Below are positions 18,278 to 62,075 of a DNA stretch of 64,000 nucleotides, piece after piece; positions within the stretch are counted from its first letter, which is position 1; every line of letters begins with the position of its first letter. The notes beneath the pieces were generated by a model, which saw only the letters and a list, made by a program, of their open reading frames with translations, did no database searches and was not told the origin of the DNA. This DNA comes from a virus. Lineage: Duplodnaviria > Caudoviricetes. Position numbers and translations under genes: made by a program. The stretch covers positions 1,483-65,482 of IMG/VR virus record IMGVR_UViG_3300037808_001421; one strand, 5' to 3'.

Positions 18278-18290
18278 CGGGTTGCGCGCC

Positions 18291-18307
18291 GGTACAATGG
18301 GTCCGTG
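18291..18307 (+). promoter_or_regulatory. Class-2 promoter GTACAAT-N6-GTG (probable leaderless start)
   Basis: TACAAT 18293-18298, in-frame GTG at 18305; same geometry at three other sites. Confidence 0.55.
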
Positions 18308-42068: not shown

Positions 42069-43871
42069 ATGCTGCTTGACGTCGCGAAGAAAGTCCAGGC
42101 GAGGCTATCGGAGAGCCGCTTCGGTGACCTCACTCTCGAGTCTTTTGATAACCCGTATGACTACGTTGAAGAGAACGACGAAGAGAAGGTAGACGTCCTT
42201 CCTTCCGAGTTCACTGAGTACGCCGTCCGAGTACCCGTGGCGGGTGGTCTCGAGGACTTCAGGTTTGCTGATCGCAGGTACCTCAGGCCCATTTACGACA
42301 CGCCATCCAAGCGCAGGGTCGTCATTGCAGGCCGTCAGGTTGAGAAGTCAACTCTCCTAGGCAACCAGTCGCTGGCATACATGGCGTTGATCCCTCACTT
42401 CAGGGTTCTATACGTCTCCACGTCGCATACCCAGACCAAAGTTTTTAGCCGTGACAGAATCAAGGAGCCGATGGAGGTCTCCCCCATCCTGGCGCAGTTC
42501 ACCAGCACGCAGCTTCTTTCTAACGTCCTGGAGAAGAAGCTCGTCAACGGTTCTCAAATCACGCTCCGGTTCGCGTTCCTCAACGCCGACCGTTGTCGTG
42601 GTATCCCGGCGGACTACGTCAACATCGACGAGTTCCAGGACATCATGATTGAGAACGTACCGGTCATCGAGGAGTGTGCGTCTCACTCGAAGTTTCGGAT
42701 GTTCACGTATTCGGGCACGCCCAAGTCTCTTGGCGGCTCGTTGGAGCATTACTGGTCTAAGTATTCAACACAGAACGAGTGGGTTGTACCTTGCCGCTCG
42801 CACACACCGATGCACTGGAACATTCTCAGTGAGGACAACATCGGTAAGAACGGTCTCATCTGCGACAAATGCAGCAGACCTATTCATGCAATGGACCCGG
42901 ACGCTCAATGGGCGTCCATGAACCCAGAACCTGACGTAGAGCTCCCCTTTGAGGGCTTCAGGCTACCGCAGCTAATGGTCCCGTGGATCGAGTGGCGGGA
43001 CATCCTGGACAAGCAGCGCAAGTACAGCCGCGCCAAGTTCTACAACGAGGTGCTTGGCCGCAGCTACGACTCAGGTACCCGCCCTCTTACGCAACAAGAC
43101 CTGAGAGGGAACTGCAACAACGAGCTCTCCATGGATGCTCTTCCAGAAGTGAAGAAGATCATCGGTCAGATCCAGGTCTGCATGGGCATCGACTGGGGTA
43201 CTGGAGAGAGCTCTTACACCGTCATCACGCTGGGTGCGTACCTGCCTTTCGCACCGGACAGGTTCACCATCTTCTATTGGAAACGCTGTGAGGGCCGAGA
43301 GGCGGAGCCGAAGGAACAGCTCAGCATCATCCGTAAGCTGGTCAACGACTACAATATCAGGCACATCGGAGCTGACTATGGCGGCGGGCACTGGCCGAAT
43401 GATGAATTGCTGCGGGACTACGGTTCCAACCGTGTCCACAAGTACCAGTGGGTAGGTAACGTAAAGAAGAAGATCAGCTACGAGCCGAGCCTGGGTATCC
43501 CGAGGTTCTTATGTCACCGCACGGAGATCATGAGTGACTACTTCAACGCGCTCAAGCGTGGTGATGTGTTCATGTTCCCTCGCTGGCCTGAGTTCAAGGA
43601 CCCCTTCGCTGCGGACCACATGAACATCTTCAGCGAGTTCAACGACAGGCTGCGGATGAACGTCTACAAGCATGCTCCTGGTATGCCGGATGACTCCGCG
43701 CACTCGGCCATCTTCTGCTTCCTGTGCTCTTTCTTCTTCAGGAAGAGGCCAGACGTGGTCCTGCCTCGCAAAGAACTGCAACGGCAGAACGAGATCTACG
43801 ACGGAAGCGTTGGGGACGTCGAGTCGATGGACATCGATCCCGAATACACCTACGACAATAATCAGAGCTAG
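42069..43871 (+). CDS. terL: Terminase large subunit (lambda GpA-like)
   Basis: Walker A GRQVEKST, Walker B NIDEFQD, SGTP, FYNEVLG, nuclease GIDWG, PDDSAH. Confidence 0.9.
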   Translation: MLLDVAKKVQARLSESRFGDLTLESFDNPYDYVEENDEEKVDVLPSEFTEYAVRVPVAGGLEDFRFADRRYLRPIYDTPSKRRVVIAGRQVEKSTLLGNQSLAYMALIPHFRVLYVSTSHTQTKVFSRDRIKEPMEVSPILAQFTSTQLLSNVLEKKLVNGSQITLRFAFLNADRCRGIPADYVNIDEFQDIMIENVPVIEECASHSKFRMFTYSGTPKSLGGSLEHYWSKYSTQNEWVVPCRSHTPMHWNILSEDNIGKNGLICDKCSRPIHAMDPDAQWASMNPEPDVELPFEGFRLPQLMVPWIEWRDILDKQRKYSRAKFYNEVLGRSYDSGTRPLTQQDLRGNCNNELSMDALPEVKKIIGQIQVCMGIDWGTGESSYTVITLGAYLPFAPDRFTIFYWKRCEGREAEPKEQLSIIRKLVNDYNIRHIGADYGGGHWPNDELLRDYGSNRVHKYQWVGNVKKKISYEPSLGIPRFLCHRTEIMSDYFNALKRGDVFMFPRWPEFKDPFAADHMNIFSEFNDRLRMNVYKHAPGMPDDSAHSAIFCFLCSFFFRKRPDVVLPRKELQRQNEIYDGSVGDVESMDIDPEYTYDNNQS

Positions 43872-44191
43872 AGGTCAGAGTGGACTGCGGACAGCGCGCG
43901 GCGTGCCGACTCAGCAGCGTTGTAGTTCCCCATTGTGGTTCGAGCAGCAGCCTCGAGCCGCTTGACCCGGTGTTCGAGCTCACAAAGCCTCATGGCCATC
44001 TCGTTCACGTCCATGGTGCGCGTGCTGAGGTAGGCTTCGACACTTTCTCTGGGAATCCAGATGCGGCGGTCGCCCTGATGTTTGATTTTAGGGAGCCTTT
44101 TTCGAGAGAGAAGTCTTCGTACCGTACGCTCGGAAACGCCCACAAGAGCCGCGGTTTCCACGACTGTTAGAAGATCGGGTTCCGTTCCCAC
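43868..44191 (-). CDS. Excisionase/MerR-like HTH DNA-binding protein (start uncertain)
   Basis: LLTVVETAALVGVSERTVRRLLS...IWIPRESVEAYL. Confidence 0.8.
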   Translation of the reverse strand: MGTEPDLLTVVETAALVGVSERTVRRLLSRKRLPKIKHQGDRRIWIPRESVEAYLSTRTMDVNEMAMRLCELEHRVKRLEAAARTTMGNYNAAESARRALSAVHSDL

Positions 44192-44205
44192 ATTCAAGGG
44201 TGCGT

Positions 44206-44222
44206 GGTACGGTTTTCTTGTG
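44206..44222 (+). promoter_or_regulatory. Class-2 promoter GTACGGT-N6-GTG
   Basis: TACGGT 44208-44213; in-frame GTG 44220. Confidence 0.45.
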
Positions 44223-45428
44223 TTCGACGACATCGATCTGGACATCCGTACTTCAGCAGCGAACGTTAGCCGATCCGACCTGCTCAGTCACGGCCGTCGG
44301 GCTGCTGATATGTTCATACGTGAATCCGTCCCCCTGACGGAAGCGATTATCAAGGTCGCGCAGGAGACGTCATCGCTGACGCCAGCACACCTCGAGCGCA
44401 TCACGGAGTTCGCCAACACGGCAGCTTTTGAGCGCCTCTTCGAGAAACAAGCCTCAGACAAGAACATCTCGTTCGACATCGCAGACCCCGCCGACGTCGT
44501 CAGGGGCATCAACAGCGCAGCCTGCCCTCAGACCGTGAAGACCTCCTCCGCGGACTACGCGCTGCCCCCGCCTGCGCCCCGTCCGAACGTCGCTGCGATG
44601 GATGAGTCGCTCGAGGCTGCTTTCGCCGTCGAGGGTGGCGGTATGGAGAAAACCGCGTCGGCCGAAACCAAGTGGGACGATCTCGGTCGGAACTGGCAGC
44701 GGGCCTGTCGCCTCGAGGAGCTCGCCGTCGAGACCTACTGGAACGCCAGCGGTATGCAGAAACAAGCTGCCGCTGAGGCCATCGAGAAGGGCTACAGGGA
44801 AATCCTGGGCGGCACCAACATGGGTGAGCTCATCCACGCGATGGCCGGTATCGAGAACGGTCCAATGCTCAAGGAAGCAGCTTCCGCAATCTCGGACAGG
44901 TTGGTACACACACTTCCTGCGTACCGGGTCCGTCAGATCCAGGCGGACGCCATCAACTACGAGATGCAGAAGGTGGCTTCTGTCCGTATCGCCAACCACG
45001 AGCACCCTGTGGTGGAGGCGTTCGGCGCCTACGTGGCACTGACCCAGAAGCTCGCCGCCATCGAGCACGCCACCAACAAAATCCACGACAAACGGATGCA
45101 GTTGGAAGAGCTCGTCAAAGAGGCAGGGCTCATGAGCGCGGCATCGGGGGCCCTGAAGGGGTTCCAGCGCGGTCGGAAAACGGGCCTCAACCTCATCGAC
45201 TCTGCGCGCCGCGGCTTCGAGGGTGCCCAGAAGCGGTACGCTCACACCGCAGGCAAGACCGTCACCAAAGGTGTCGACAAGGCCGCCAAGGGTGGCAAGA
45301 AGGCGAAGGACAAGGGCATGGGCTGGGGCAAGAAGGCCCTGCTCGCCGGCGGTATCACCGGGGGTACCGGTCTTTACGTCGCCAACGAGGCTGCGAACAC
45401 CCCCTACGTTCCTCCGCACAGGACTTGA
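44220..45428 (+). CDS. Putative head protein with nine K-x-[AS] motifs and a C-terminal basic/Gly cassette
   Basis: IKVAQ, EKQAS, VKTSS, EKTAS, QKQAA, LKEAA, QKVAS, QKLAA, VKEAG. Confidence 0.75.
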   Translation: MFDDIDLDIRTSAANVSRSDLLSHGRRAADMFIRESVPLTEAIIKVAQETSSLTPAHLERITEFANTAAFERLFEKQASDKNISFDIADPADVVRGINSAACPQTVKTSSADYALPPPAPRPNVAAMDESLEAAFAVEGGGMEKTASAETKWDDLGRNWQRACRLEELAVETYWNASGMQKQAAAEAIEKGYREILGGTNMGELIHAMAGIENGPMLKEAASAISDRLVHTLPAYRVRQIQADAINYEMQKVASVRIANHEHPVVEAFGAYVALTQKLAAIEHATNKIHDKRMQLEELVKEAGLMSAASGALKGFQRGRKTGLNLIDSARRGFEGAQKRYAHTAGKTVTKGVDKAAKGGKKAKDKGMGWGKKALLAGGITGGTGLYVANEAANTPYVPPHRT

Positions 45429-46063
45429 TCATGAAGACATCAAACGAACTGGATATCTTCGAAGCGCAGCTCGAGGAGTTGTCCTTCGACCTCGAGGACG
45501 GCCCGACCAAGCTGGCGGCGCTGGAGAAGGCGGCGTTCAGCCCGCGCGCTTCCCAGGCGATGACCTCCATCGGTATTGGTGCGGCCACCACGCTCGGCAG
45601 CGCGCTGGGCGGGACCGTCATCAACTCCATCCGCAGCGCGATGACCAAGGGCAAGAACTACAAGGGCATGCTCGATGTGAACCCGGACCTAGGGAAGAAA
45701 GACTCCAAGCAGGTTCAGCTGGCGTTCAACACGCTATCCAGGTTCAACCCGCACTATGCGTCGGACCCTTCTGTCGCCGGCGCCTACGTGCGGCAGCAGC
45801 TGGACATGGAGCGGGTAGACCTCAACAGCATCAACTCGCTGGTTGCTGCGAACAAGAGCATCAGTGGAGGTCAGCGCCCCACCTTCGACCCGGCAGGGTG
45901 GCACCAGACTGGTTCGAACCTTCTGGGGAACGTGCAGTCCGAGGGTGACCGGCTGCGCTCTCACATGGCGGACGCGAAGTCTCGAGCGGAGTACGAAGCG
46001 TACCGCAGGGGTTCAACGAAGGGCCCTGATGCAAGTGAGCTCAAGCGAGCCTTCGGCGGCTGA
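45425..46063 (+). CDS. Putative virion protein with acidic leader ending KLAALEKAA and a Gly-rich helix
   Basis: ORF track; motif content. Confidence 0.7.
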   Translation: MIMKTSNELDIFEAQLEELSFDLEDGPTKLAALEKAAFSPRASQAMTSIGIGAATTLGSALGGTVINSIRSAMTKGKNYKGMLDVNPDLGKKDSKQVQLAFNTLSRFNPHYASDPSVAGAYVRQQLDMERVDLNSINSLVAANKSISGGQRPTFDPAGWHQTGSNLLGNVQSEGDRLRSHMADAKSRAEYEAYRRGSTKGPDASELKRAFGG

Positions 46064-48621
46064 TGCTCACGAAGCTCGCCACGTTCTCAGGCGTCTCTCC
46101 CCAAACGGGGGAGCCGCTCGTCCAAATGTTCCGGCAAGGTGCATCGGTGGAGAAGACCGCCGGCCAAATGTCTCCGGACATCAAGGACTGGCTGAGCACG
46201 TACAAGTCTGACAAGGAGAACGTCCCCCTTCTCGTCAACGCGATGGGCGACTCGCGTATCTGGGGTCAGAACCGAAACGGTGACAACTTCTTCTGGCCGG
46301 CACTGTCCCACGACTGTCGCTGTCACGATCCTTCCAAGCATTCGATCGACAAGTTCACTGGAAAGCGCATCCCGGCGCACGGGTACTGGACCTTCCTCAT
46401 GGCGCACCCGTTCGTGCACCATAAGAACAAAGACCCGGGGCGTGCGTTCGGCAAGGTGGCGGTATCTACGCTCAACCCGTTGATGAAGCGCGTTGAGCTC
46501 GTAGTTCTCATCAACAGGCAACGTGCGGAGCAGTACGAGGCCGGTGAGTTCGTCGCGCGCATCGACCAGGGCGAGTTCCCGGATGTGTCGATGGGGACCA
46601 AGATCCCTTACGACACATGCTTGATTTGCGGCAACAAGTCGCGAACCAAGAAGGACTACTGCGAGTGCCTCAAGAAGTGGCGCATGGGGGCCATTCTCCC
46701 CGACGGCCGCATCGTAGGCGTAGACAACCCGCACCCGAGGTTCTTCGACATCAGCTTCGTGTTCATCGGCGCTGACAAGACCGCCAAGGTGATGACGAAG
46801 CTTGCTTCAGACTCGGGCCTTTGGGTGCCTGAATCCGTTGTTGATGCCGAACGGCTGTACGGTCCAGAGGAGAGTCTTGTGAAAACTGCAGGCGTCGGCA
46901 TGACCAATGAAGACTTTCTTCGTTTCTTCATGGGCAGTAAGGCTGCGAAGAAGGGCGTAGGCCGCTCTCTCGGTACGCACGGACGTACGGATGAGGCCAT
47001 AGACAAAGACGAGCCCTCACGGAACGAAGGCGTTCTACCTACCAACTACACGGAACATGACACTGTCGTGAGCAACGAAGCTCGAGAGAAAGAAGCAGCC
47101 GCGAAGCTCCAAGCCCCTCCGCACAGGGATAGGTATCCGTACGCAGGTCGTATGAAGTTCCGGGGTATGACTATCAACATCGAGAACGCGAAGGGTACTT
47201 GGCGCACGGGTGAAGGTTGGAAGACCTTTATGAAGTTCCCGTACGGTGAGATCGATGGCTCGATGGGCAGCGACGGTGATCCTGTTGATGCGTACATAGG
47301 TCCTGATGCCTCTGTTGAGAACGTGTACATCGTTCACCAGAACCACGTCGCAGGCCCCAACAAAGGTACCTACGACGAAGACAAGTGCATGCTGGGCTTC
47401 AAGACCGCGAAGCAGGCAGAGAAGGCATACAAGGGTCAGTACACTGGCGTTGATCCCTTCCGTTCTATCACCACCATGAAGGTCGACGCTTTCAAGAAGC
47501 TGGTCTTCAGTAAAGAGGGAGTAGGTGAGAAGTTGGCTGGCTGTGCAGAGGACCCCTGTAGCGGCGCTCCCGACACAGCGGGTGACGTCCTCGATGAGTA
47601 CTTCAACTACGGTAACCGTCGGCGTCACCGTAGGTTTACAGACAAGGTCACCAACGAGAGTACTACCCACGTAGGTTCGGGCTTAGGTGACACGTTTGAA
47701 GACGATGGCGCCGTACGCATGAAGACCAAGACTGCGGGCGTGAAGGACGCTGCGTGGAAGTTGGCGGAAATCAAGAAGGTCATCCCTGCGGATAAGGTCA
47801 TGCCTAAGGTCGTTGAGAAGCTGGACGCCCGCGAAAAGGACATCCCCAAGGACATCCTGGATATCCTAGGTAAGCTTCCACTTCCCGTGAGCCTATCCAC
47901 GCCCTCCGCAATGGGCATCGTCCTGCGCCCCAAGGAGTTCCAACGAGTCGTACTCGTGCGGATGGGCAAGGGTGACGTAGCAGACAAGCTCGACTCTGAC
48001 TGCAGCTGCTTCAAAGAGGGGGACGGGAAGCTGCCTCTCACTGGTGGCTTGGGTTATCCGGCTTTCAGCGCGGCGTTGATGCGGATGCTTCTACCATTCC
48101 TGGAGAACCGTTCGTTCATAGAGCCTGTTCTGAAGCGCCGCATCATTCGAATCTCGGTAACGGCCCCTGAGAAAAAGGAAGAGAAGGATGCAGATTCACC
48201 TCTTCTAACCAAGATAAGTAGTGCCTACAATTGGTACAGAAGCGAATGTCTCTCCGCGGCCAAACACGCACCGTATGCCATCAAGGAACACCCCGAACTG
48301 CAGTTGGCAGTACTGGGTCCTATGGCCGACGACTTCACCAAAAACGCCAGCGCGCAGGAAGCCGCGATGGGCGCGGCTATCGCTTCCATCCCCATTGCTC
48401 TGATGTATGCTTCCAGTCTGAAGCGGGCCAAGAATCAAGGACAAGCGATGGGAGCTATCAAAAGCTTCATCGCGGATCACCCAAAGCTTACAGCAATGGG
48501 AACCTCGGTAATGGCTCGAGAGCTAATGGAACACCCAGCCGTCAACAAAGCGGTCTCCGACGTGGCTTCGCGGTCACTCAAATCGGTGGCACGCTTCGTT
48601 GCACAAGCAGCCGGGGCATGA
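46063..48621 (+). CDS. Prohead-protease-like polyprotein with inserted InPase-like domain
   Basis: NRNGDNF, FVHH, DVSMG (candidate catalytic Ser), CLICG..C, FFDISFV; InPase-like IENAKG...YGEI..S.G.DGDPVD..DEDKCMLGF; position upstream of scaffold-like and capsid genes. Confidence 0.7.
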   Translation: MLTKLATFSGVSPQTGEPLVQMFRQGASVEKTAGQMSPDIKDWLSTYKSDKENVPLLVNAMGDSRIWGQNRNGDNFFWPALSHDCRCHDPSKHSIDKFTGKRIPAHGYWTFLMAHPFVHHKNKDPGRAFGKVAVSTLNPLMKRVELVVLINRQRAEQYEAGEFVARIDQGEFPDVSMGTKIPYDTCLICGNKSRTKKDYCECLKKWRMGAILPDGRIVGVDNPHPRFFDISFVFIGADKTAKVMTKLASDSGLWVPESVVDAERLYGPEESLVKTAGVGMTNEDFLRFFMGSKAAKKGVGRSLGTHGRTDEAIDKDEPSRNEGVLPTNYTEHDTVVSNEAREKEAAAKLQAPPHRDRYPYAGRMKFRGMTINIENAKGTWRTGEGWKTFMKFPYGEIDGSMGSDGDPVDAYIGPDASVENVYIVHQNHVAGPNKGTYDEDKCMLGFKTAKQAEKAYKGQYTGVDPFRSITTMKVDAFKKLVFSKEGVGEKLAGCAEDPCSGAPDTAGDVLDEYFNYGNRRRHRRFTDKVTNESTTHVGSGLGDTFEDDGAVRMKTKTAGVKDAAWKLAEIKKVIPADKVMPKVVEKLDAREKDIPKDILDILGKLPLPVSLSTPSAMGIVLRPKEFQRVVLVRMGKGDVADKLDSDCSCFKEGDGKLPLTGGLGYPAFSAALMRMLLPFLENRSFIEPVLKRRIIRISVTAPEKKEEKDADSPLLTKISSAYNWYRSECLSAAKHAPYAIKEHPELQLAVLGPMADDFTKNASAQEAAMGAAIASIPIALMYASSLKRAKNQGQAMGAIKSFIADHPKLTAMGTSVMARELMEHPAVNKAVSDVASRSLKSVARFVAQAAGA

Positions 48622-48687: not shown

Positions 48688-49275
48688 ATGGACGAGTTCC
48701 TAGCGGACCTCTTTGACACGTCAAACAACATCTCGTCGCTCTCAGGCGGTCAGCCCGCTGAAGACCTCGAGAAGCTCGCCCAAGCACACCTCATGAGTGA
48801 GATGCTTGCGGCCGACGGTTTCGACGTCAACAAACTCACCGATGACACAGTCGCCAAAGTCGCGTCTGTGTTGGGCTTCCAAGCGGCGCCGGCGCCCACG
48901 GCGCCCGCACCTGCGGCAGCGCCGACGGAGAAGGTCGCATCGACCGAAGAGCTCCTTACTGCCGCAGGTAAAGAGAAGGTTGCGGAAGCGCAGGCTCTCG
49001 GCAAGGTCATCGCGCATTCGTACGTCAGAGAGCTCGCTGAGCTGAACCAGAAGACGGCTGCCGCAGAAGCTGCCTCGGCTCCGGCAGCTCCCGCCGCCAA
49101 TGGTGCGCTCGAGAAGCTGGCCGAGGCCCGCCTCGCTGCGTGGATTCAGGAGCAGCAGGCTGCGCAACCCGCCGCCGCGCCTGCCGATGAGACCACCAAG
49201 CTAGCCGAGGCTATCGATCAGCGCGCCTACCAGATCGCGGTCGAGCGCGGAATCATCGTGGAGGAAGGGCAGTAG
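48688..49275 (+). CDS. Scaffold-like Ala-rich protein with seven K-x-A motifs
   Basis: EKLAQ, AKVAS, EKVAS, EKVAE, QKTAA, EKLAE, TKLAE; AGGAG RBS. Confidence 0.7.
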   Translation: MDEFLADLFDTSNNISSLSGGQPAEDLEKLAQAHLMSEMLAADGFDVNKLTDDTVAKVASVLGFQAAPAPTAPAPAAAPTEKVASTEELLTAAGKEKVAEAQALGKVIAHSYVRELAELNQKTAAAEAASAPAAPAANGALEKLAEARLAAWIQEQQAAQPAAAPADETTKLAEAIDQRAYQIAVERGIIVEEGQ

Positions 49276-49547: not shown

Positions 49548-50861
49548 ATGAGCACCCTAATGGACATGTTGAACGACTGCATCTCAGAGTCGATGTCTCA
49601 GCTGAGTGACCCCTCAGGCATGAGCAAGACTGCGGGTAAAGAGTGCGCCAAGTGCGAGCACGACAACTGCCCCGAAGGCTGCCCCAAGGGCTGCTCCTGC
49701 AAGCCTTTCGCTGACACAGGAAAGACCTCGAGCGTAGATCTTAGTGATCCGCTCAGCGTTGCGGATATGTGCGATTTCGTTGCGGATAATCTCGAGAAGG
49801 TCGCTGGCGACCCGCCGATGAACCCGCCGATGGACGCAGGTATCGCACCGGGTGGTCCCGGCAGCGCGATGGCGACCAACGAAGTTCCCGACAAGCCCCC
49901 GCTTCCGGACGCTGGTGGTATGGGTCAGGCCAGCGGCGCCAACCAGCCTCCGAAGCGGACAGATGCTACGGAGAAGGCCAACGTCAACGACGCAGCCAAC
50001 GCTTTCCCGACCAACCTGGACTCTGCTCCAGGCGGCACGACCAAAATGTCCTCGGTCCTCGACCTGTTCGCAGCCGGCCATCTCGAGAAGACTTCGGTCC
50101 TCGAGCTCTTCGCCAAAGAAGCTGCCAACGCCGAGCACCCTGCCAGCATCAGCGCGGGCACGGAGCCAGAGCTTCAGTCCGCCGCCGCCGCCAACTCGGC
50201 AGTGAGCCAGGGCACCGAAGCTGGTGAGCAGGTTCCTTCCGAGATGGGTAGCGACTCAGGTCGGGAGCTCATCGGTTCAAACGACTCGGCTATCAACGCC
50301 AGTAAGCAGCAGGCCAAGACCAGAACGGTCAAAGCGGATATGGCTGCTTGCCTCTCGGAGACGCCGATGTCGGCGTCGCACGATTCCGCTCTCAATAAGT
50401 CGCTCGAGAACACCTCCGAAGCGGGTGTGAAGATTGCTGCGGCTCGACAACAACTGCAGGAGTTCGCCAACGCGTCTCCAGAGAACCGTGCCAAATTGGC
50501 TGAGGCGGTGAAAATCGCCTTGGACGAGGAAGAGGAAGAAGTACCTCCGGGAAAGAAACTTCCCGGTGGCGAAGCTCCCCCTCCCGAAGCTATGGCGCCA
50601 CCCCCACCCGGAATGCCCATGGGAGAAGCGCCGCCGCGCCTGCCGATGATGGTTCCGGGCCAGGAGCCTGAGATGGTTCCGGGGATGGCTGGTCCCTCTG
50701 AAGAAGCGCTGGCAGCAGCCCAGTCCGGGGTTACGCCAGAAGAACTGGCCGAAGCCATGGTACTGATGGCATCCGCGGCACCGCCCCCGGCCCCCGAGCC
50801 GATGGCACCGCCGATGATGCCTGGTGGAGCTCCTCCGGTACCGGCAGCACCGGCAGCCTAA
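49548..50861 (+). CDS. Low-complexity scaffold/core-like protein with Pro/Met-rich C-terminus
   Basis: SKTAG, EKVAG, AKEAA, VKIAA, AKLAE; internal repeat SVL(D/E)LFA. Confidence 0.7.
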   Translation: MSTLMDMLNDCISESMSQLSDPSGMSKTAGKECAKCEHDNCPEGCPKGCSCKPFADTGKTSSVDLSDPLSVADMCDFVADNLEKVAGDPPMNPPMDAGIAPGGPGSAMATNEVPDKPPLPDAGGMGQASGANQPPKRTDATEKANVNDAANAFPTNLDSAPGGTTKMSSVLDLFAAGHLEKTSVLELFAKEAANAEHPASISAGTEPELQSAAAANSAVSQGTEAGEQVPSEMGSDSGRELIGSNDSAINASKQQAKTRTVKADMAACLSETPMSASHDSALNKSLENTSEAGVKIAAARQQLQEFANASPENRAKLAEAVKIALDEEEEEVPPGKKLPGGEAPPPEAMAPPPPGMPMGEAPPRLPMMVPGQEPEMVPGMAGPSEEALAAAQSGVTPEELAEAMVLMASAAPPPAPEPMAPPMMPGGAPPVPAAPAA

Positions 50862-50879: not shown

Positions 50880-51260
50880 ATGGAAAAGCTCAGCCAGACC
50901 AAGACGGCCTCCTTTCTGAAGCAGGCCGCGGCTACGATTCGTAGTCAGAAGGAAGACAACGACACGTTGTCCGCCGAGAACTCCGATCTTCGTGAGAAGA
51001 TTGCGGGTTTCGAACGCGAGCAGCGTGTCGAGGCTATCGCTCGGGACATGGAGGACAAGGGGTTGAACGACGCCTTGGACTTCAATGAGAAGGTCGCTTC
51101 TCTCCGAGAGCAGGACAACCTCGATGTCATGGAGGAAGCGGTCAAGGTCGCATCTCCCCAGACGCCGGGCCTGCACTTCCAGACCGACGACGACGCACCC
51201 GCTGGTTCCGGTGCAAGCGCTTTCGAAACCTTCATCGTGACCGGAGAGGTCCCGCAGTAG
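50880..51260 (+). CDS. Coiled-coil scaffold-like protein
   Basis: TKTAS, LKQAA, EKIAG, EKVAS, VKVAS; just upstream of the decoration/capsid genes. Confidence 0.7.
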   Translation: MEKLSQTKTASFLKQAAATIRSQKEDNDTLSAENSDLREKIAGFEREQRVEAIARDMEDKGLNDALDFNEKVASLREQDNLDVMEEAVKVASPQTPGLHFQTDDDAPAGSGASAFETFIVTGEVPQ

Positions 51261-51302: not shown

Positions 51303-51833
51303 ATGTCCCTCGGAGCACACTTCGACCTGATCACGCCCTTCCAGATGTTGGACCGGCGTTCCATGACCGTTGCTGGTGGCGCGGATGGCAACATCCTCGA
51401 CCCCGACAACGCCCGCCCGCTCATCGACGGTGAGTGGCTTCAGCCGGATGGCCTCGGCGCCATGGTCCGCGGTGGCACTGGCCACGCGACCAACGACGAG
51501 CCCGCCACCGTGCCTCAGTACGTCTACGTCGCCGAACGTGGTCGCTACGAGACGCAGGGTCTCGGCAAGGGTCCTTTCCTGTGGATCGGTGACTTCGAAG
51601 CCGACACGCTGGTCTGGGCAGGCGCCCCCGGCACGACTTCAGAGAACCCGCCGACTACGGTCGGTCAGCCTCTCGAGGTCCGCAACGTGGTGTTCACCGG
51701 CGGTATCATCCGTCGCGGCTTCGCGCTGTGTCAGTCCGGCAGCTTCGTGGTCGGTTTCGTGACCCGCCTCCCGGCGAACAACGCCAACCGGCTGCGCTTC
51801 AGCACCAAGGGCGCGGGTGGCATCCTGGCGTAA
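51303..51833 (+). CDS. Putative capsid decoration/cement protein
   Basis: Beta-rich, immediately upstream of the capsid gene; AGGAG RBS. Confidence 0.55.
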   Translation: MSLGAHFDLITPFQMLDRRSMTVAGGADGNILDPDNARPLIDGEWLQPDGLGAMVRGGTGHATNDEPATVPQYVYVAERGRYETQGLGKGPFLWIGDFEADTLVWAGAPGTTSENPPTTVGQPLEVRNVVFTGGIIRRGFALCQSGSFVVGFVTRLPANNANRLRFSTKGAGGILA

Positions 51834-51882
51834 GCCTCGGCTTACCTAAGGAAGCACCAAAAGGACCAAAGGAGAATTAGAG

Positions 51883-53007
51883 ATGAGTGCAATTGCAGCC
51901 ACCGTCGAAATGTTCTGTCAGCGACTCGACGAGCCCGACGGAAAGACCAAAACAGCAGCCCTGGCGGGCCCCTGGATTCGCGACCGACTTCGCGAAGTGG
52001 CGTTCAGCCGCAACATCATTCCGCCGGACCCGGTGACCAAGGCCGACTGCCAGCGTTCCGTGAATCACGACACCCTCGTGAAGATCGTGGACGTCGAGCC
52101 CCGCTCGCGCGCCATGGCCATCGACTTCCGTTCCCAGCCCACGGCTCGCTTCATCAGCGCACCGCGTGCTGAGATTCCGTTCTTCACGGTTTCGTCCGAG
52201 AAGTACGAGAAGACGGAGCAGGAGCTTCTCGCCTACGAGATGCCCATCACGAAGATCATCGAAGAGAACAACGTGAAGGACATCCAGGAGGTCGAGGACC
52301 GCGAGTTCCTGCGGCATGGCGAGGCCAGCGTCCAGGGTCTGCAGACGGACACGAATGCCACGGTGGGCGTGAACTTCAACGCCACGAACATCCGCGCCGG
52401 CAATGTGAACGCGCAGCAGATTTCGATCGTCAAGGGTGAGCTCGCGCTCGCCGCCGACGGCATCGACTTCACTGTTCGTCCGCTCCAGCGTCCGGACCTC
52501 GTGTCGCTGTTCAAGCTGCTCGACGGCAACCGCCTGCGCGCTGACCGGATGCTGATGACGGAAGTCGACCACGACGACGTCCTCAACTGGACCGTCGAAG
52601 ACTTCGGCGACAAGATCCAGTCGGAGACGGTGGTCGACGGCTACAAGTACAACACCCTTCTGGGTCGTCGGGTGGTTCGTACCATCAAGACCGACATCCT
52701 GCGGGCGGGCAACTTGTACATCTTCGCGGCGCCGCAGTTCCTCGGGAAGTTCTACATCCTGAACAACACCAAGTTCTACATCGACAAGATCGCGAACTTG
52801 ATCACGTGGCAGTCCTGGGAAGACATCGCCATGGGCTTCGTGAACATCGCGGCCATCAGGAAGCTCGAGCTCTACCGAGGGTCCGTCCGTCCCACGGCGA
52901 CCGACGCCGGTTTCGCAGCCTTGCTGCCGGTCGAGGAAGAGGACCTGGGCGCGGAGAACAACCGCGTCACGGCCAACCTGCACTTCCCGCAGGTCGCTCA
53001 GTTCTAA
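51883..53007 (+). CDS. Major capsid protein (HK97-fold)
   Basis: 374 aa; strongly C-ending codons; IRDRLRE..F.R.IIPP; DIQEVEDREFL; strong RBS; followed by a hairpin. Confidence 0.8.
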   Translation: MSAIAATVEMFCQRLDEPDGKTKTAALAGPWIRDRLREVAFSRNIIPPDPVTKADCQRSVNHDTLVKIVDVEPRSRAMAIDFRSQPTARFISAPRAEIPFFTVSSEKYEKTEQELLAYEMPITKIIEENNVKDIQEVEDREFLRHGEASVQGLQTDTNATVGVNFNATNIRAGNVNAQQISIVKGELALAADGIDFTVRPLQRPDLVSLFKLLDGNRLRADRMLMTEVDHDDVLNWTVEDFGDKIQSETVVDGYKYNTLLGRRVVRTIKTDILRAGNLYIFAAPQFLGKFYILNNTKFYIDKIANLITWQSWEDIAMGFVNIAAIRKLELYRGSVRPTATDAGFAALLPVEEEDLGAENNRVTANLHFPQVAQF

Positions 53008-53022
53008 GCAACCCACTGGGGT

Positions 53023-53061
53023 CTAGCACCTGGCTTTTCAATACGCATAGCCAGGTGCTAG
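53023..53061 (+). terminator. 13-bp stem-loop after the major capsid gene
   Basis: CTAGCACCTGGCT...AGCCAGGTGCTAG. Confidence 0.65.
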
Positions 53062-53082
53062 TCTCTCGGTATCGAGAAGCAC

Positions 53083-53886
53083 ATGGATACGCTGTTCATC
53101 AAACACCTGCAGCGCAGAGCTGCAACAAGAACACAGCGTGCTGCTCGACGAGGTGGCCATCGTCTAGGAATCATCTTGGACGACGGGTCTCGTATCCGCC
53201 GGAAGGGTCGTAACCGCACGACCCCTATCGACTTCGCACTCGCAGTACAAAACAGCTACACGCTTCTCAAAGGTATAGACGATGGTCTGCTGGCCATCCA
53301 AAACGCCGCTGGTGAAGTCTTCTCTCGTGACAACCTCGTTGCCCTGTTCGCAGGGACGGCAGAGGCGCCCGCGGTAGAGACTGAGCCTGAAGTAGAGCCT
53401 GTCCCCGAACCCTCCCCGGACCCCGAGCCTGAAGCGGAGACTCCTGAAGAGGAGACTCCTGCCGAAGAGCCCGAGCCTGAGCCTGAAGCAGAAACTACGG
53501 ATGACGTAGAGCCTGTTGCGGACCCAGAGCCCGTCGAGGAGCCCGAGCCCGAAGCAGAGACGCCTGAAGAGGTTGAACCTGCTGAAGAGCCCGAGCCCGA
53601 AGCGGAAGCCGAGGAGCCCCCTTCTGAGGAAGAGCCCGAAGAGCCCGAAGCAGAGGAAGAGGCACCGGAAGAGCCGGCGCTGTACGGGGACGTGGACATC
53701 ACCAATTCCGTTCTGGTGCCCGAAGAAGAGGATGGTGTCAGCGAACCTGAAGAGTCGACCCGCGCGGACGAGCTCACGGTCATGAGTCGAACAGCACTCA
53801 ACAAGCTGGCGAAGAAAGCGGACATCAAGTTTCGCGGCGTCAAGAAGGACGACCTGGTTGTTCTTCTCGTCGAGGCGGGTGCCTGA
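53083..53886 (+). CDS. Protein with long acidic Glu/Pro linker and C-terminal Rho-N-like domain
   Basis: EPEPEAE repeats; ELTVMSRTALNKLAKKADIK...KKDDLV. Confidence 0.75.
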   Translation: MDTLFIKHLQRRAATRTQRAARRGGHRLGIILDDGSRIRRKGRNRTTPIDFALAVQNSYTLLKGIDDGLLAIQNAAGEVFSRDNLVALFAGTAEAPAVETEPEVEPVPEPSPDPEPEAETPEEETPAEEPEPEPEAETTDDVEPVADPEPVEEPEPEAETPEEVEPAEEPEPEAEAEEPPSEEEPEEPEAEEEAPEEPALYGDVDITNSVLVPEEEDGVSEPEESTRADELTVMSRTALNKLAKKADIKFRGVKKDDLVVLLVEAGA

Positions 53887-54272
53887 TGCCAAGAGCTTGG
53901 AATATCTCAGATCATCCGGGAGGCCCATTTGCGCCCGCAGCCATCATGGTTGTGGGGTACACGGTCCTTCCAGGACGTTTCATAGACATCCCGCAGGTTT
54001 TGTACGACGCAGCTGAGTCTAAGCTTCTCGACGACGTGGGCCGTGGGCTCATAGCGTTCGGGCAGCAGGCGCCTCTTTCTTACCGGCAGGCCAAAGGGCA
54101 GACGCACGCCCCGAAGCCCGCAGGGTACGTGCCTAGCCATGCTAGGCCGAAAAAGAAGAAGGTGGCGAAGGTGAAGCCAGACAAGCCGCTTTCTCCACCG
54201 GGCACTGCCCCACAGGCTGAAGTTCAGAAGTCGTCAAGGTCAACAAGGGTACGTCGAGCAAGTGAGGGGTAA
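53886..54272 (+). CDS. Hypothetical basic protein
   Basis: ORF track; start coupled to the previous stop. Confidence 0.65.
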   Translation: MPRAWNISDHPGGPFAPAAIMVVGYTVLPGRFIDIPQVLYDAAESKLLDDVGRGLIAFGQQAPLSYRQAKGQTHAPKPAGYVPSHARPKKKKVAKVKPDKPLSPPGTAPQAEVQKSSRSTRVRRASEG

Positions 54273-54764
54273 ATGGCACTAGTCGCTGACATCAATGACC
54301 CGCTCATTGTCCAGGTCATCGGCTACACCCGTTTTGCCCTTCGTGACTTCGAAGAGCTCAACAGGTTGACCGTAGGCGTCGACCACTCTGACCGGCACAT
54401 CTACTGGGCCATCCTCATGACACTGTCAGACTGGGCGTCCACGCCGCCGTTTGTCGGGGCAAACTTCCAGTACATCATGAACCACGGCTGGATTGCGCTG
54501 TTCGTCCGTGGCGTGATGTGCGAGCTCATCCAGTCGCTGATGTTCTTACACATGCGGAACTACCTGTCCTACTCGGACGGTGGCGTTCCCGTGCAGACTG
54601 AGCATCCGCAGCTTCTCCAGTCCTCTCTCACCATGATGCGTTCTATCTATGAGCAGCAGAAGCTACGTGCTTTGGTTGCGGCCAACATCGAAGACGCGTT
54701 CAACGCTGGCATTGGTATACATAGTGAATATGTACACGTGAACAGCTTCTACGGAGCCATCTGA
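54273..54764 (+). CDS. Putative head-tail adaptor/neck protein
   Basis: Helical; RNYLSYSDGG; position after the capsid gene. Confidence 0.55.
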   Translation: MALVADINDPLIVQVIGYTRFALRDFEELNRLTVGVDHSDRHIYWAILMTLSDWASTPPFVGANFQYIMNHGWIALFVRGVMCELIQSLMFLHMRNYLSYSDGGVPVQTEHPQLLQSSLTMMRSIYEQQKLRALVAANIEDAFNAGIGIHSEYVHVNSFYGAI

Positions 54765-55933
54765 TGACACCTCACGACGCAGAAATCCTTTCGTTCATCG
54801 AGGAACTCGACACCGTCAAAATCAAAGAGGGTTGGGTCCCTCCCCTGGCAGGCGGTGCTTTGGCAGGCGGTGCTACAGGCGCTGCGCTTGCGGCGAGTCG
54901 TGCTGAAGAGGGTGAAAAGCTTAGGGCAGGCGCCTTAGGCGGCGCGGCGGGTGCAGGTCTTGGCGCCGCGGGCGGCCTAGCAGGTGCTGTCACAGGTGGC
55001 ATAGGTGGCTCCTTAGCTGGCATCGCAAGACATGGCAGTGGCATAGGCCAGCGCATGACAAACAGCCAAGTGTTGAAGACGCTGCCCTACACGGTTGGCG
55101 GGATGGGTGTAGGTACTTTGGCGGGGGGTGCGCTTGGCGGTGTCGCTGGTGCCCACCTAGCTCGACGTCCTCCTCGAGAAGAAGAGTTGGAGAAGGCTGC
55201 TGCATTGGGCCTCATGATGGGTGGTGGTGCCATGGCCGGTGGTACCACCGGCGCAATCATAGCTGCCAAGCGAGCTGAAGAGGGTGAGCGGCTTAGGGCA
55301 GCCGCCATGGGCGGTGTTGCGGGGGCAGGTCTTGGCGCCTTGGGCGCTGGCATAGGTGGCATAGCGGGAGGCGTGGGAGGCATCGGCTTGGGATCTGCGG
55401 TTACGAATCCTCCTAGGGGGAACTTCTCAAAGCTGAAGGCCATAGTTCCGTATGCCAGGGGCGGTGTAGCTTTAGGCAGCGCCGCGGGCGCTGGCATAGG
55501 TGGGCTGATGGGCGGTGCGGGTGCTTCGGAGGTCAACGAGGCTATTCGACGCAGACAGGCCGCGCCTGAAGGAGAGAAGGTCGCTTTTTCTCCTGAAGCT
55601 GCAGAAGAATACATGCAGGAGAAGGGCGCGTCCGCGATGGCAGCTATAGGCTCTGGCATACGCGCCGGGTACAAAGGCGTCAAAAGCGTCGCTTCAAATC
55701 TGATGGACGGTAAGAAGGTCAACGGTCTCAAAGGCGCCCTCGACACTGTCACCGACCCGATGTCCAAGGCGTACAAGGCAAGCAAGAAGCAGAGCGTGAA
55801 CATCGCCAAGAGGCCGCTCAAGGAAGGCGGCAAGGCAGCCAAGAGCCGCAGCATGGATACCGCAGTTGGTGTAGGTACTACTGCAGCGGGCGCGGCAGGC
55901 GCGGCAGGTATCGGAGGGTACGCGGTTAGCTGA
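54764..55933 (+). CDS. Glycine-zipper polyprotein with duplicated modules separated by K-x-[AG] sites
   Basis: SFIEELDTVKIKEG; two RAEEGE(K/R)LRA modules; LEKAA, EKVA, EKGA. Confidence 0.75.
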   Translation: MTPHDAEILSFIEELDTVKIKEGWVPPLAGGALAGGATGAALAASRAEEGEKLRAGALGGAAGAGLGAAGGLAGAVTGGIGGSLAGIARHGSGIGQRMTNSQVLKTLPYTVGGMGVGTLAGGALGGVAGAHLARRPPREEELEKAAALGLMMGGGAMAGGTTGAIIAAKRAEEGERLRAAAMGGVAGAGLGALGAGIGGIAGGVGGIGLGSAVTNPPRGNFSKLKAIVPYARGGVALGSAAGAGIGGLMGGAGASEVNEAIRRRQAAPEGEKVAFSPEAAEEYMQEKGASAMAAIGSGIRAGYKGVKSVASNLMDGKKVNGLKGALDTVTDPMSKAYKASKKQSVNIAKRPLKEGGKAAKSRSMDTAVGVGTTAAGAAGAAGIGGYAVS

Positions 55934-56006
55934 GACGTTTAGCTTCGGGAAGCACCGAGCTACCCGTAGAATTGGGTCAGAGGGGCGCCTAACGCCCATC
56001 CAGTGA

Positions 56007-56888
56007 ATGCTTGAAGTCACGAAGCTAGTTGTCCGAAGCTTTGACCTCGATCATCTCGATGTGTACTGGGAGATCAGCACATCAACAGATGCACCGGAGA
56101 GGTACCACTTCGACGTCCTTAGGAGTGTGGACGGCCCGGCCGGACCTTTTGAGGTTCTAGCAGCCGACCTATTGAACACGTTTACCTTCAGGGACGGTAG
56201 CGTGCAGGCGCTGCACAAGTGGCGACAGTACTTCTACAAGATTCGCGTACGTGACCTCGACAGTGGCGAGGACCGAGAGTACGGCCCCAAGATGTTGGCC
56301 GCGGAGCCTGACCGCATCGCTCTTGAGATTCAGCGACGGCATCAGCTGGTGAAGCAAGAGTTCACGGGTAGGAAGTGCTTGCTGTTCCCTGCACTGACGA
56401 CAGGCTTTCGATGCCGTAGCTGCTACGTGACCAATGATCGAGGGAACTCGCTGGGTCGGCAAAGTACCCAGAATTGCCCGACGTGTTTCGACACGACCTT
56501 TGTGGGCGGGTACGCGACTCCGATCCTTGTTTACCTGCAGCTCGAGCCCTCTCCCAAGCACGTGCAGAGGTCAGACATCAACGAGAGGGCGCCATCTGAC
56601 ACAACGGGGCGTCTTGCTGCATTTCCTCCAGTCAAGCCAAAGGACGTTGTCGTTGAGGCCGAGAACCGAAGGTGGCGCATAGAAAATGTGTCTTCTACTC
56701 AGAAGCTGCGCGCCACTCTTCACCAGGAGCTAAGGCTGCACGAGCTCCCGCGGGACGACATCAACTTCAAGCTTCCCGTCAACCTCAGTTTGTTCGACAC
56801 TGAGTTCTCTCCTGAGAGAGAGTTCACACGCCCAATGTCGTTAGGCAATGACACTGTCAGAGCCATCCCGGATTTGGTACCTCTGTAA
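56007..56888 (+). CDS. Putative head-closure/neck protein with FN3-like N-terminus and Zn finger
   Basis: LDVYW...YFYKIRV; CRSC...CPTCFDTTFVGGY. Confidence 0.55.
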   Translation: MLEVTKLVVRSFDLDHLDVYWEISTSTDAPERYHFDVLRSVDGPAGPFEVLAADLLNTFTFRDGSVQALHKWRQYFYKIRVRDLDSGEDREYGPKMLAAEPDRIALEIQRRHQLVKQEFTGRKCLLFPALTTGFRCRSCYVTNDRGNSLGRQSTQNCPTCFDTTFVGGYATPILVYLQLEPSPKHVQRSDINERAPSDTTGRLAAFPPVKPKDVVVEAENRRWRIENVSSTQKLRATLHQELRLHELPRDDINFKLPVNLSLFDTEFSPEREFTRPMSLGNDTVRAIPDLVPL

Positions 56889-57229
56889 TGAACGCAGTCA
56901 CCACAGAAGCCTTTACTAGCGAGCTTGAGAAGATTGCTCAAAGGTACCCAGCCACCAAAGAGCGGCTGAAGACTACGGCCAAAGCAATGGGCATCTTTGC
57001 TTTGGGCTATGGGCTAGGTTCTGGTCTAGGTAGAGTAGCGGGCCATCAGATAACAAAAAGCGCACTTCCAGGTCTGACCAACGCTGACCTGAAGAAAGTA
57101 TCCGTAGGTGTCGGGCTTCTTAGCGGCGCCGGCGCGCTAGGTATGGCTGCGTCCAAATCTCAGCTACGCAACCTGTGGAAAGAGGCTGACAAGGTCACGG
57201 ACTCCAGGTTCTCAAAGGCAGGCAAATGA
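56888..57229 (+). CDS. Small two-helix membrane-like protein with AFTSELEKIA leader
   Basis: MNAVTTEAFTSELEKIAQ; GYGLGSGLG and GVGLLSGAGALG segments. Confidence 0.7.
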   Translation: MNAVTTEAFTSELEKIAQRYPATKERLKTTAKAMGIFALGYGLGSGLGRVAGHQITKSALPGLTNADLKKVSVGVGLLSGAGALGMAASKSQLRNLWKEADKVTDSRFSKAGK

Positions 57230-57966
57230 GCGCGCCTGCAACCATTCGCGAGTTTGAAGCTGGGGACGGAAGTCTTGCCAATGACCCAATGGTCTACTTG
57301 GCGAAGCTGTGGACCTTCTTTCTGCAGAACATGTTCAACACCTTCCCTGAGGGTTGCGGCTTCCACTGGCGCCCCAGCGAAGAAGACACTGAAGTTACCA
57401 TCTCGAACGAGAAGCCTACGCTCGAGGCCATCGAAAAGACTCCGCACATCACTGTGGTCATTGGTCCTGGGCAGATGCACGGCCTATCGATGGACCAACA
57501 CGTTTTTACCGATTCACACACGGGAACGCGCGAGCACACTGACCTTGCATCTGCTTCTGTTGCGTTCCATTGCCAGGCTCGAAATGGCCTGATGGCTCGT
57601 CGCATGGCCTGGAACGCAGGCTTTTACACGAACGCCCTCCGACGCATGGTGATGCGCCAGGATGGTATTCATCATGTCAACCCGGGCTGGAATATGTCCG
57701 GCGAGACACCCCCAACGGCCTATACAGGCCCCCTTTCAAAAGAAGAGCTGGTTGCCGTTGTGGTGACCGTTTCCTTCTATTGGCAACCTCACTGGACTAT
57801 AAAAGAGTGTGTGAGCACCTTGCTCGATTCATTCGCAGTGACCTTGTCCGTTCGGGACAGGGACTTGAGCGTAATTCGGGTCAACGGCGTTCCGTTGAAG
57901 AACATCACTCTGGTGGACATTGATGCGGCGGTGCCCGAGCTCGTCCAGCAAGTTGAAGTGGAGTAG
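57226..57966 (+). CDS. Putative tail terminator/completion protein
   Basis: Immediately upstream of the sheath gene; beta-rich. Confidence 0.5.
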   Translation: MSAPATIREFEAGDGSLANDPMVYLAKLWTFFLQNMFNTFPEGCGFHWRPSEEDTEVTISNEKPTLEAIEKTPHITVVIGPGQMHGLSMDQHVFTDSHTGTREHTDLASASVAFHCQARNGLMARRMAWNAGFYTNALRRMVMRQDGIHHVNPGWNMSGETPPTAYTGPLSKEELVAVVVTVSFYWQPHWTIKECVSTLLDSFAVTLSVRDRDLSVIRVNGVPLKNITLVDIDAAVPELVQQVEVE

Positions 57967-57975
57967 GAGAACCTG

Positions 57976-61206: not shown

Positions 61207-61228
61207 GCTCAACAGGCAGGAGAAAGAT

Positions 61229-62032: not shown

Positions 62033-62075
62033 TAGCCCCGTGCTACTCTGAAGGCGAGCAAAGGAGAGGTAGTCA

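Follow-up and report, generated by a model that had tools for sequence, protein, structure and literature searches.

A putative self-processing prohead protease with an internal InPase domain in a large uncultured phage

This analysis concerns one gene in a 64,000-nucleotide stretch of phage DNA (the window), which comprises bases 1483-65482 of the 65,482-base IMG/VR virus record IMGVR_UViG_3300037808_001421. The gene occupies positions 46063-48621 and encodes an 852-amino-acid (aa) protein, in which a predicted prohead protease is followed by a domain of the InPase family, similar to inorganic pyrophosphatases (PPases), and by a conserved helical C-terminal domain. By analogy with known systems, we consider it probable, with some reserve, that the gene specifies a self-processing polyprotein carrying an enzyme as cargo, which would be cut free, packaged, delivered with the DNA and would then hydrolyse a pyrophosphate bond. 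The predicted parts of the gene are given below, where the slash within a site marks the putative scissile bond.

46063..48621, plus strand: whole gene, predicted polyprotein of prohead protease, InPase cargo and C-terminal domain, 852 aa
46063..46161, plus strand: N-terminal leader, aa 1-33, putative propeptide, ending at a VEK-T-A/G site (K31, A33)
46162..46806, plus strand: predicted prohead serine protease domain, aa 34-248, ending at K246-L-A248/S (from predicted structure and invariant residues)
46618..46668, plus strand: Cys-rich insert of the protease domain, C186-x2-C189...C200-x-C202, aa 186-202 (from conservation)
46807..47097, plus strand: variable linker, aa 249-345, with sites K274-T-A276/G and K343-E-A345/A
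47098..47538, plus strand: predicted released InPase fragment, aa 346-492, 16.3 kDa
47143-47502, plus strand: Pfam InPase match (PF18823), aa 361-480
47530..47541, plus strand: downstream site G-E-K490-L-A492/G493, the best conserved bracket of the insert
47539..47736, plus strand: small conserved module LExxF...RRxRxW...GSG, aa 493-558, a predicted beta hairpin, ending at K556-T-A558/G
47737..48348, plus strand: conserved helical C-terminal domain, about aa 564-762, ending at K760-N-A762/S (custom hidden Markov model (HMM) Cdom1; confidence of the model >90)
48349..48618, plus strand: C-terminal helical tail, aa 763-852, with a hydrophobic stretch

The earlier note on this DNA had claimed an InPase-like domain inserted into the prohead protease between two K-x-A sites. 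The residues that it quoted, FRGMTINIENAKGTWRTG..WKTFMKFPYGEIDGSMGSDGDPVDAYIG..YDEDKCMLGF, are present in frame in the open reading frame (ORF) 46063-48621 as aa 366-446, and both brackets were located, REKEAA at aa 341-346 and GEKLAG at aa 488-493. Its coordinates for the segment, 47085-47540, are one base off the frame and produce stops on translation; the segment in frame is 47086-47541 (aa 342-493).

The nature of the domain was supported by its Pfam match and by the match of its model to the type I pyrophosphatase fold. PF18823 (InPase) was recognised with an E-value of 2e-30 and 105.8 bits against a cut-off of 26.8, over profile positions 11-133 of 135, and the match was confirmed on the DNA. 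It is the sole Pfam family found in the 852-aa protein in a scan at E<=1 and the sole InPase in the 65.5-kb record. A phmmer search with aa 330-505 against PDB sequences recovered the portal protein gp19 of Pseudomonas phage Pa193 (9b41_L, residues 634-752, E 9e-18) and, weakly, the H. pylori PPase (E 0.18) at the stretch YG...GSDGDPVDA. Using a profile built from 21 InPase segments, the same portal was hit with E 1.5e-35, and the remaining 28 PDB sequences at E<=1 were all inorganic pyrophosphatases or close homologs, the best of them 5tea_A (E 0.0033).

The AlphaFold model of aa 340-852, made from 83 sequences, has predicted local distance difference test (pLDDT) values >90 over about aa 350-489. 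When this segment was compared with the PDB by Foldseek, all rows shown were family I PPases (best E 0.034; 4z73_D with probability 0.98), although none reached E<=0.001. VIA-align applied to the Foldseek candidates gave PPases in 50 of 50 rows, with Z 5.5-6.7 and a root mean square deviation (rmsd) of 3.3-4.2 Å over 104-121 aa, and a Foldseek-independent VIA search of 48,161 chains placed PPases in the top seven positions (Z 4.9-6.0). In the models, Z values this moderate do not by themselves prove homology to PPases; we accepted it because the exclusive PPase matches, the profile matches and the conserved active-site positions were taken together. Nine positions (E374, R381, Y394, D404, D409, D438, E439, K441 and Y456) are invariant in all 21 InPase segments, the position of D406 is D or E in every one of them, and the YG...DGDxxD stretch aligns with the PPases of H. 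pylori and N. gonorrhoeae. According to the model, the domain has a type I pyrophosphatase-like OB (oligonucleotide/oligosaccharide-binding) fold with the metal-binding acidic residues intact. No profile of the classical family I PPases was matched in the Pfam scan at E<=1, where PF18823 stood alone, and the PPases of the PDB were reached only weakly (best E 0.0033), so that the InPase domain here belongs to a clade separate from the classical soluble enzymes of family I. Iyer et al. 2017 describe the InPase clade as type I PPase OB folds without one beta hairpin, between strands 1 and 2 (PMC5512222).

We then turn to the carrier. The earlier note had taken the host protein for a prohead protease, and this identification is very likely correct, since the first 260 aa have a fold like that of T4 gp21 and assemblin and match prohead proteases in BFVD, a database of predicted viral structures. 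The support from sequence profiles was weak (phrog_18299 'head maturation protease', E 3.7e-5; phrog_2774, E 4.6e-6). The AlphaFold2 model of aa 1-300, from 73 sequences, has a mean pLDDT of 82.6 and a core >90. Foldseek hits of this model in the PDB were also weak: the protease of herpes simplex virus 2 came top (E 0.038), and the list repeatedly shows T4 gp21 and further proteases of herpesviruses. A wide VIA search placed T4 gp21 first (5jbl_A, Z 9.6, rmsd 2.8 Å, 132 of 165 residues) and the varicella-zoster virus protease second (1vzv_A, Z 8.2), followed by those of human cytomegalovirus (8j3s_A, Z 6.2) and of Kaposi's sarcoma-associated herpesvirus (1fl1_A, Z 5.5); MCE-domain proteins with Z 5.2-6.5 were interleaved in the list. 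In BFVD, 127 matches at E<=0.001 were obtained with the model. Bacillus phage G gp19 is one of them (1.3e-14), and many others carry the name of a prohead, HK97-family or head-maturation protease (1e-5 to 1e-6). As neither the InPase nor the protease model had a Foldseek match at E<=0.001 in the PDB, the fold assignments rest on VIA-align, BFVD and the sequence profiles.

Two residues invariant in the 73 sequences, H120 and S176 (the latter in DVSMG), lie 56 residues apart and are the predicted catalytic pair. Three cysteines (C186, C189, C200) show conservation of at least 90 % in these 73 sequences, and C202 does so in a set of 16; the CxxC...CxC insert, shared by the family, is probably a zinc ribbon, with putative zinc binding. 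The N-terminus MLTKLATF is kept in homologs. In two homologs (L018 5411-11506 and L021 10001-12965) a gap of ~390 aa splits the protease domain; these gaps look like inteins in the prohead protease gene, and Pfam intein and homing-endonuclease families are listed for other homologs.

The C-terminal domain was harder to characterise. A wide VIA search with aa 560-852 gave generic helical matches only (Z<=4.6), and comparison of the domain with the ESM Atlas gave no usable match (TM-score <=0.35). The domain occurs in 74 of 81 related locus ORFs, whether InPase is present or not, and we regard it as a putative scaffold or capsid-targeting part. We also considered a nested in-frame start that would yield a product consisting of the C-terminal domain alone, as in herpesvirus UL26.5, and dropped it because no Shine-Dalgarno-like sequence precedes the ATG at 47720.

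To see how the insert is distributed, custom HMMs were built for four segments of the protein. At E<=0.001 a database search gave 1238 proteins, and PF18823 is present in every one of the best 120; this search prefers candidates that share words with the query and is therefore biased to the protease-InPase fusion. By the custom HMMs, the order protease, InPase, C-terminal domain is present in the query and in 119 of the best 120 matches. An N-terminal position of the protease is seen in 120 of 121 proteins, namely the query and all but one of its 120 listed matches, and likewise in all 81 protease-bearing locus ORFs. These locus ORFs were obtained by scanning viral contigs with the alignment of the family, and 80 of 449 confirmed loci were kept; a scan with the single protein had given 5 loci and the alignment query more. 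The locus set was picked by two peptide patterns, one of them inside InPase. Both the protease and the C-terminal domain were found in 74 ORFs, with InPase between the two in 15 and without it in 59, and the InPase-less ORFs are mostly 525-620 aa long. The comparison of homologous proteases proposed in the earlier note thus shows that most relatives lack the insert. Its wording 'inserted into the prohead protease' stands for the gene and not for the catalytic domain, as the insert lies outside the latter, between the protease domain and the C-terminal domain. Because 15 of the 74 ORFs carry InPase and 59 do not, the core protein is taken to be protease plus C-terminal helical domain, and InPase occupies a cargo slot between them.

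In other homologs the slot also holds further domains. A Pfam scan of eight homologs found DUF5661 (P0004), NUDIX right after InPase (P0016), SET (P0052), GNAT (P0053 and P0081) and cupin (P0111). Among large uncultured phages the protease-cargo architecture is widespread. In none of 50,697 phage records does a place cover at least 80 % of the query, so the protease-InPase fusion itself was found only in uncultured phages. In the 40 rows listed from these records the protease part was matched only in three Vibrio phages, Salmonella phage Arash and Bacillus phage G (two records). Phage G gp19, Arash gp222 and the protein of Vibrio phage D181 have a homologous protease (31-37 % identity over aa 20-284) and, unlike the query, no InPase; they resemble the query in lying in a head gene cluster and in having K-x-A before and after the protease domain.

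The boundaries of these parts coincide with a short motif. Eight K-x-A-[GSA] sites are present in the protein (K31, K246, K274, K343, K490, K556, K561 and K760) against 1.6 expected, a number reached in 1 of 300 shuffles. None of the eight lies inside the protease, InPase or C-terminal domain; all are in inter-domain or lower-confidence segments. The ten-residue blocks with K274, K490, K556/K561 and K760 have a mean pLDDT of 35-58, the K343 block 66 and the K246 block 79, and the K31 site extends over two blocks, one of 59 and one of 75. The linker is itself poorly modelled (pLDDT 40-64 over aa 251-300) and between homologs can be aligned only at K-x-A motifs, which holds for the linkers of all 16 full-length homologs (43-49 % identity). 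Within these 16, K246, E489, K490, A492, K556 and A558 are invariant and K274 and A276 at least 90 % conserved; in 73 N-terminal segments K31 and A33 are also at least 90 % conserved. The downstream site of the insert is placed where pLDDT falls from 74 (aa 480-489) to 55 (aa 490-499), before a stretch <50 at aa 494-516. The RRxRxW...GSG module that follows has a pLDDT of ~72, accompanies InPase in the close clade and sits between two K-x-A sites.

We also counted the motif in 126 linkers from 70 unique members. K.A[SGA] occurs 148 times against 28.8 +/- 5.0 expected (maximum 46 in 200 shuffles) and KTA[SGA] 45 times against 1.3, figures which, because the homologs share kinship, are not independent events and set conservation against free drift without giving a probability. 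Of six control motifs made from the same residues, none has a comparable excess: R.A[SGA], E.A[SGA], A.K[SGA], K.[SG]A and [SGA]A.K do not exceed expectation, and KA.[SGA] is modestly above it (48 vs 28.4). The linker consensus is E-K-(T/V/A)-A-(S/A/G), and motif density is 1.34 per 100 aa outside domains vs 0.45 inside. As for the sites bracketing InPase, the earlier note was right that they are present, and they are conserved and enriched; the upstream one is the less conserved. The strict K-x-A-[GSA] motif is found upstream (<=40 aa) in 57 of 120 proteins, downstream (<=~25 aa) in 78 and on both sides in 41, while shuffling leads one to expect 0.03-0.06 K-x-A near InPase per window of 18-34 aa. 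The more distant InPase clade has K-(T/V/E/K)-A-N-D-P-I-K upstream and (E)-K-(T/K/E)-A-(S/G) downstream. Counts of bare K-x-A beside InPase were not used, as they are confounded by a K-x-A-[LI] in the last InPase helix.

If all sites were cut, the predicted products would be aa 1-33, 34-248 (protease, 24.5 kDa), 249-276, 277-345, 346-492, 493-558, 559-563, 564-762 (22 kDa) and 763-852. The InPase product (aa 346-492) would have 16.3 kDa and a pI of 9.1 and contains no internal K-x-A-[SGA].

The same motif was sought in the rest of the window, whose recognisable genes include the following.

24522-30713, plus strand: fused RNA polymerase, 2063 aa (Rpb2_3 and Rpb2_6 at aa 343-914, Rpb1_1 to Rpb1_5 at aa 1109-1962)
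42069-43871: large terminase, gpA-type (phrog_675, E 1e-55)
51883-53007, plus strand: major head (capsid) protein (phrog_2522, E 2.1e-8)
57976-61206: protein with a tail-sheath C-terminus

Because the window encodes the terminase, the head protein, the tail-sheath C-terminus and the RNA polymerase, the record is a piece of a large phage with a contractile tail; its completeness according to CheckV is ~34 %, and many related contigs are 180-220 kb. The protease gene has the large terminase on one side and the capsid protein on the other, and Ala-rich ORFs share this interval. Homologs are in the same place, phage G gp19 between portal gp14 and capsid gp27, and Arash gp222 four genes ahead of capsid gp226. 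No portal was identified among the ORFs of the window, and PHROGs and Pfam gave no match for 44082-45428, 45425-46063, 48688-49275, 49548-50861, 51303-51833 and 53083-53886.

K-x-A-[GSA] is enriched in ORFs 44082-45428 (7 vs 1.3 expected), 50880-51260 (5 vs 0.23), 18272-19867 (7 vs 1.4), 31903-34020 (5 vs 0.9), 48688-49275 (3 vs 0.8) and 49548-50861 (4 vs 1.3). Four of them without a Pfam or PHROG match (18272-19867, 31903-34020, 44082-45428 and 50880-51260, plus strand) are candidate substrates of the protease, for example internal head or scaffold proteins. The motif is rare further downstream: the 11 tail-side ORFs that follow 50880-51260 (51303-62804) have four in total, none above expectation. 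The capsid protein has K-T-A at aa 23-25 (GKTKTAALAG), and in the majority of its 72 homologs from the related loci that place is taken by K-(I/V/L/M)-A-(E/A), just ahead of a conserved IRDRLREV; the capsid protein is a putative substrate of the protease. This protein is highly conserved across the related loci (L009-L088; E down to 1e-196), with K-x-A ~22-26 aa from the N-terminus, a position that suggests the removal of a short propeptide. In Arash, gp220 (7 vs 0.9), gp223 (6 vs 0.95) and gp225 (5 vs 0.5) are enriched, each count being reached in 0 of 300 shuffles; K-E-A-G stands at the corresponding N-terminal position of capsid gp226, and K-Q-A-A ahead of the protease domain of gp222. Phage G gp19 has four motifs vs 0.5 expected, on both sides of the protease domain. 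Since enrichment is seen in proteins of the window, Arash and phage G, the motif accompanies this protease family all the way from Bacillus phage G to the relatives known from metagenomes. In the RNA polymerase (24522-30713) it is not enriched (3 vs 3.3 expected). We considered the K-T-A at aa 1467 of that protein as a cut between beta and beta' and rejected it, because it lies within the Rpb1_3 match (aa 1397-1549) and there is no motif enrichment.

These distributions bear on an explanation in which InPase is real but never released, the K-x-A motifs being for example contact motifs for scaffold, capsid or portal and the enzyme acting tethered in the prohead or in the producing cell. The variable P1' residue and the weakly conserved upstream site would both suit it. 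So would two cultured phages: in Pa193 the portal chain, as deposited, permanently includes InPase at its C-terminus (PMC11456595), and the 85 % peptide coverage reported for gp222 in Arash virions means that most of that protein persists there (PMC10585845). On the other hand, the motifs occupy low-confidence linkers where domains meet and are missing from the folded domains, they have the P3-x-P1 form typical of the protease superfamily, and the same motif recurs at the capsid N-terminus and in several neighbouring head proteins. We consider permanent tethering unlikely.

The form of the sites can be compared with three kinds of known systems. Herpesvirus pUL26 is a protease-linker-scaffold protein that cuts itself at YLQA-T and VQA-S (PMC4498786). 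It resembles the query in its N-terminal protease of the same fold, in its linker and in a C-terminal portion that remains with the inside of the capsid, and it cuts after Ala at x-x-A/S,T; the K760-N-A/S of the query, near the C-terminus, is like the pUL26 maturation site in position. It differs in having no cargo enzyme between protease and scaffold and in its P3 residue, which is hydrophobic or Tyr where the query has Lys. The pUL26 scaffold also contrasts with the C-terminal domain of the query, which has no fold match and only a putative scaffold role.

T4 gp21 and SPN3US gp245 share with the query the protease fold and a short P3-x-P1 code repeated in many head proteins. The T4 code is L/I-x-E, ending in Glu, and T4 internal proteins carry a cleaved targeting peptide. 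In both T4 and SPN3US, the cargo proteins are separate genes with their own targeting propeptides and not domains of the protease chain as here. SPN3US gp245 cleaves behind A-x-E (P3-P2-P1) and prefers Ser at P1', whereas the query motif ends in Ala; propeptides are cut by it at several motifs, and it also takes off its own propeptide at the C-terminus (PMC10052503). For these systems, self-cleavage is described, and freed proteins stay in the head and are ejected (PMC10052503).

As regards cargo, the InPase clade, its virion-associated multidomain context, its fusion to portals and both of its proposed functions have already been published by Iyer et al. 2017, who think that InPase is packaged in the virion and injected (PMC5512222). 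The two functions put forward in the earlier note, removal of inorganic pyrophosphate (PPi) for a co-packaged RNA polymerase and action against host nucleotide signalling, are the two offered there. The portal fusions of Pseudomonas phage Pa193 (gp19, PDB 9b41_L) and Burkholderia phage BcepF1 (BcepF1.124) have the same InPase clade as the query. In Pa193 gp19 the InPase profile matches aa 634-755 of the 765-aa portal, a part unseen in the structure, which models portal residues 94-528 only (PMC11456595). In these two phages the carrier is the portal and InPase is C-terminal, whereas here the carrier is the prohead protease and InPase is internal between putative cut sites. The polyvalent proteins combine several enzyme domains and a separating peptidase in one virion-associated chain, with InPase, NUDIX and GNAT in their repertoire, and their assemblin-like peptidase is described as always C-terminal (PMC5512222). 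The protease of the query is N-terminal and is apparently the phage's own head-maturation protease. Moreover, the query joins one cargo domain to the protease and some homologs two.

In the literature searched, supplementary files not being covered, no prohead protease-InPase fusion and no K-x-A cleavage motif were found, and the N-terminal prohead protease as carrier, the cargo slot and the K-x-A code appear undescribed. The architecture lists of Iyer et al. and the Arash peptide tables are supplements outside this search and may hold relevant cases.

Guided by these systems, the favoured reading of a self-processing, cargo-carrying polyprotein can be put as a sequence of steps. Its protease and C-terminal parts would bring the polyprotein into the prohead, and the protease would then cut after the Ala of K-x-A, with Lys at P3, Ala at P1 and a scissile bond between Ala and Ser, Gly or Ala; we infer this cut from the x-x-A/S sites of herpesviruses and the P3-x-P1 codes of T4 and SPN3US. 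The folded 16-kDa InPase (aa 346-492) would thereby be freed and, being too big for the capsid pores, would stay in the head and leave with the DNA through the tail at infection. Retention is expected because the domain is folded and contains no internal site. In the new host InPase would hydrolyse a pyrophosphate bond, either that of PPi, favouring early transcription, or that of a nucleotide-type substrate.

Processing could also occur without delivery. InPase might act during assembly or be discarded like scaffold and propeptides, never reaching the next host. We judge this alternative improbable: a folded domain (pLDDT >90) without internal K-x-A-[SGA] should resist fragmentation and is too large to exit, the domain is also met on portals and on further proteins of virions, and the slot gathers NUDIX, GNAT and SET, enzyme domains typical of injected polyvalent proteins.

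A packaged RNA polymerase is plausible in this phage, as the window encodes a fused beta-beta' enzyme and Arash virions hold beta and beta' peptides. The Arash virion proteome contains abundant peptides of both subunits, together with gp222, and the two subunits are there the products of separate genes, gp206 and gp216 (PMC10585845). The active site of InPase, as far as its residues tell, resembles that of PPi-specific enzymes, and a nucleotide-type substrate is a serious alternative given the NUDIX and GNAT cargo nearby and the abundance of host PPase. With the architecture unchanged, InPase would then be a counter-defence enzyme acting on a nucleotide-derived molecule (a defence signal, an alarmone or a nucleoside triphosphate). 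Iyer et al. argue in this direction from the associations with NUDIX, GNAT and TmrB and from the beta hairpin that is missing relative to classical PPases (PMC5512222). Among our homologs NUDIX stands right after InPase in P0016, and GNAT is present in P0053 and P0081. It is also general knowledge that host PPase already removes PPi. Set against this, the active-site positions of the classical PPi-specific enzymes are conserved, and a NUDIX followed by a PPase fits plain removal of the PPi product equally. We hold a non-PPi substrate to be a real but distinctly less probable option.

Several points weigh against the polyprotein reading as a whole. For the domains, Foldseek against the PDB gave nothing at E<=0.001 with either the InPase or the protease model, the Z values of 5.5-6.7 for PPases are moderate and in a range of which VIA warns that it can come from a common arrangement, and the protease domain has no Pfam peptidase at E<=1, PF04586 having no match at this threshold in the whole record. 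For the sites, the motif counts come from kindred sequences, the upstream bracket is poorly conserved (57 of 120 for the strict motif), P1' of the downstream site is S or G in just 11 of 16 close homologs, and one homolog (L061) has InPase without a clear strict motif on either side. Cleavage, the scissile bond, packaging and ejection are deduced, and a second protease may be encoded elsewhere, as the record is only ~34 % complete. Lastly, a host cell already has abundant PPase, to which a few dozen extra molecules would add little, and this weakens the simple reading of PPi removal.

More broadly, the prohead proteases of uncultured jumbo-type phages could be general cargo carriers, whose slot domains, framed by (E)-K-x-A/(S/G), would be co-assembled, cut free, retained and delivered; this extension is tentative and we would put its chances somewhat below even. 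If the polyprotein reading is true, it provides a simple testable rule for the loading of enzymes in large uncultured phages, made of a maturation protease as carrier, a slot and a short cleavage code, and with this code the mature head proteins and the injected enzymes of over 1000 metagenomic relatives (1238 matches at E<=0.001) could be predicted. It joins two separate fields, capsid maturation proteolysis and polyvalent conflict proteins. If the general extension is also true, there is a second, protease-anchored route for injected effectors beside the MuF- and portal-anchored polyvalent proteins, and the processed head proteome becomes readable from sequence alone through the cleavage code. 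Tests are possible in cultured phages: virion mass spectra are already at hand for Arash, and Bacillus phage G is a further system.

Two minor observations concern the gene and its relatives. The related contig L027 (1-1794) encodes a second InPase, at aa 367-497 of an open-ended 597-aa ORF, ~9 kb upstream of its protease-InPase gene. In the window, the start ATG of the protease gene overlaps the stop of ORF 45425-46063 (TGATG, 46061-46065), and this overlap suggests translational coupling with the upstream ORF.

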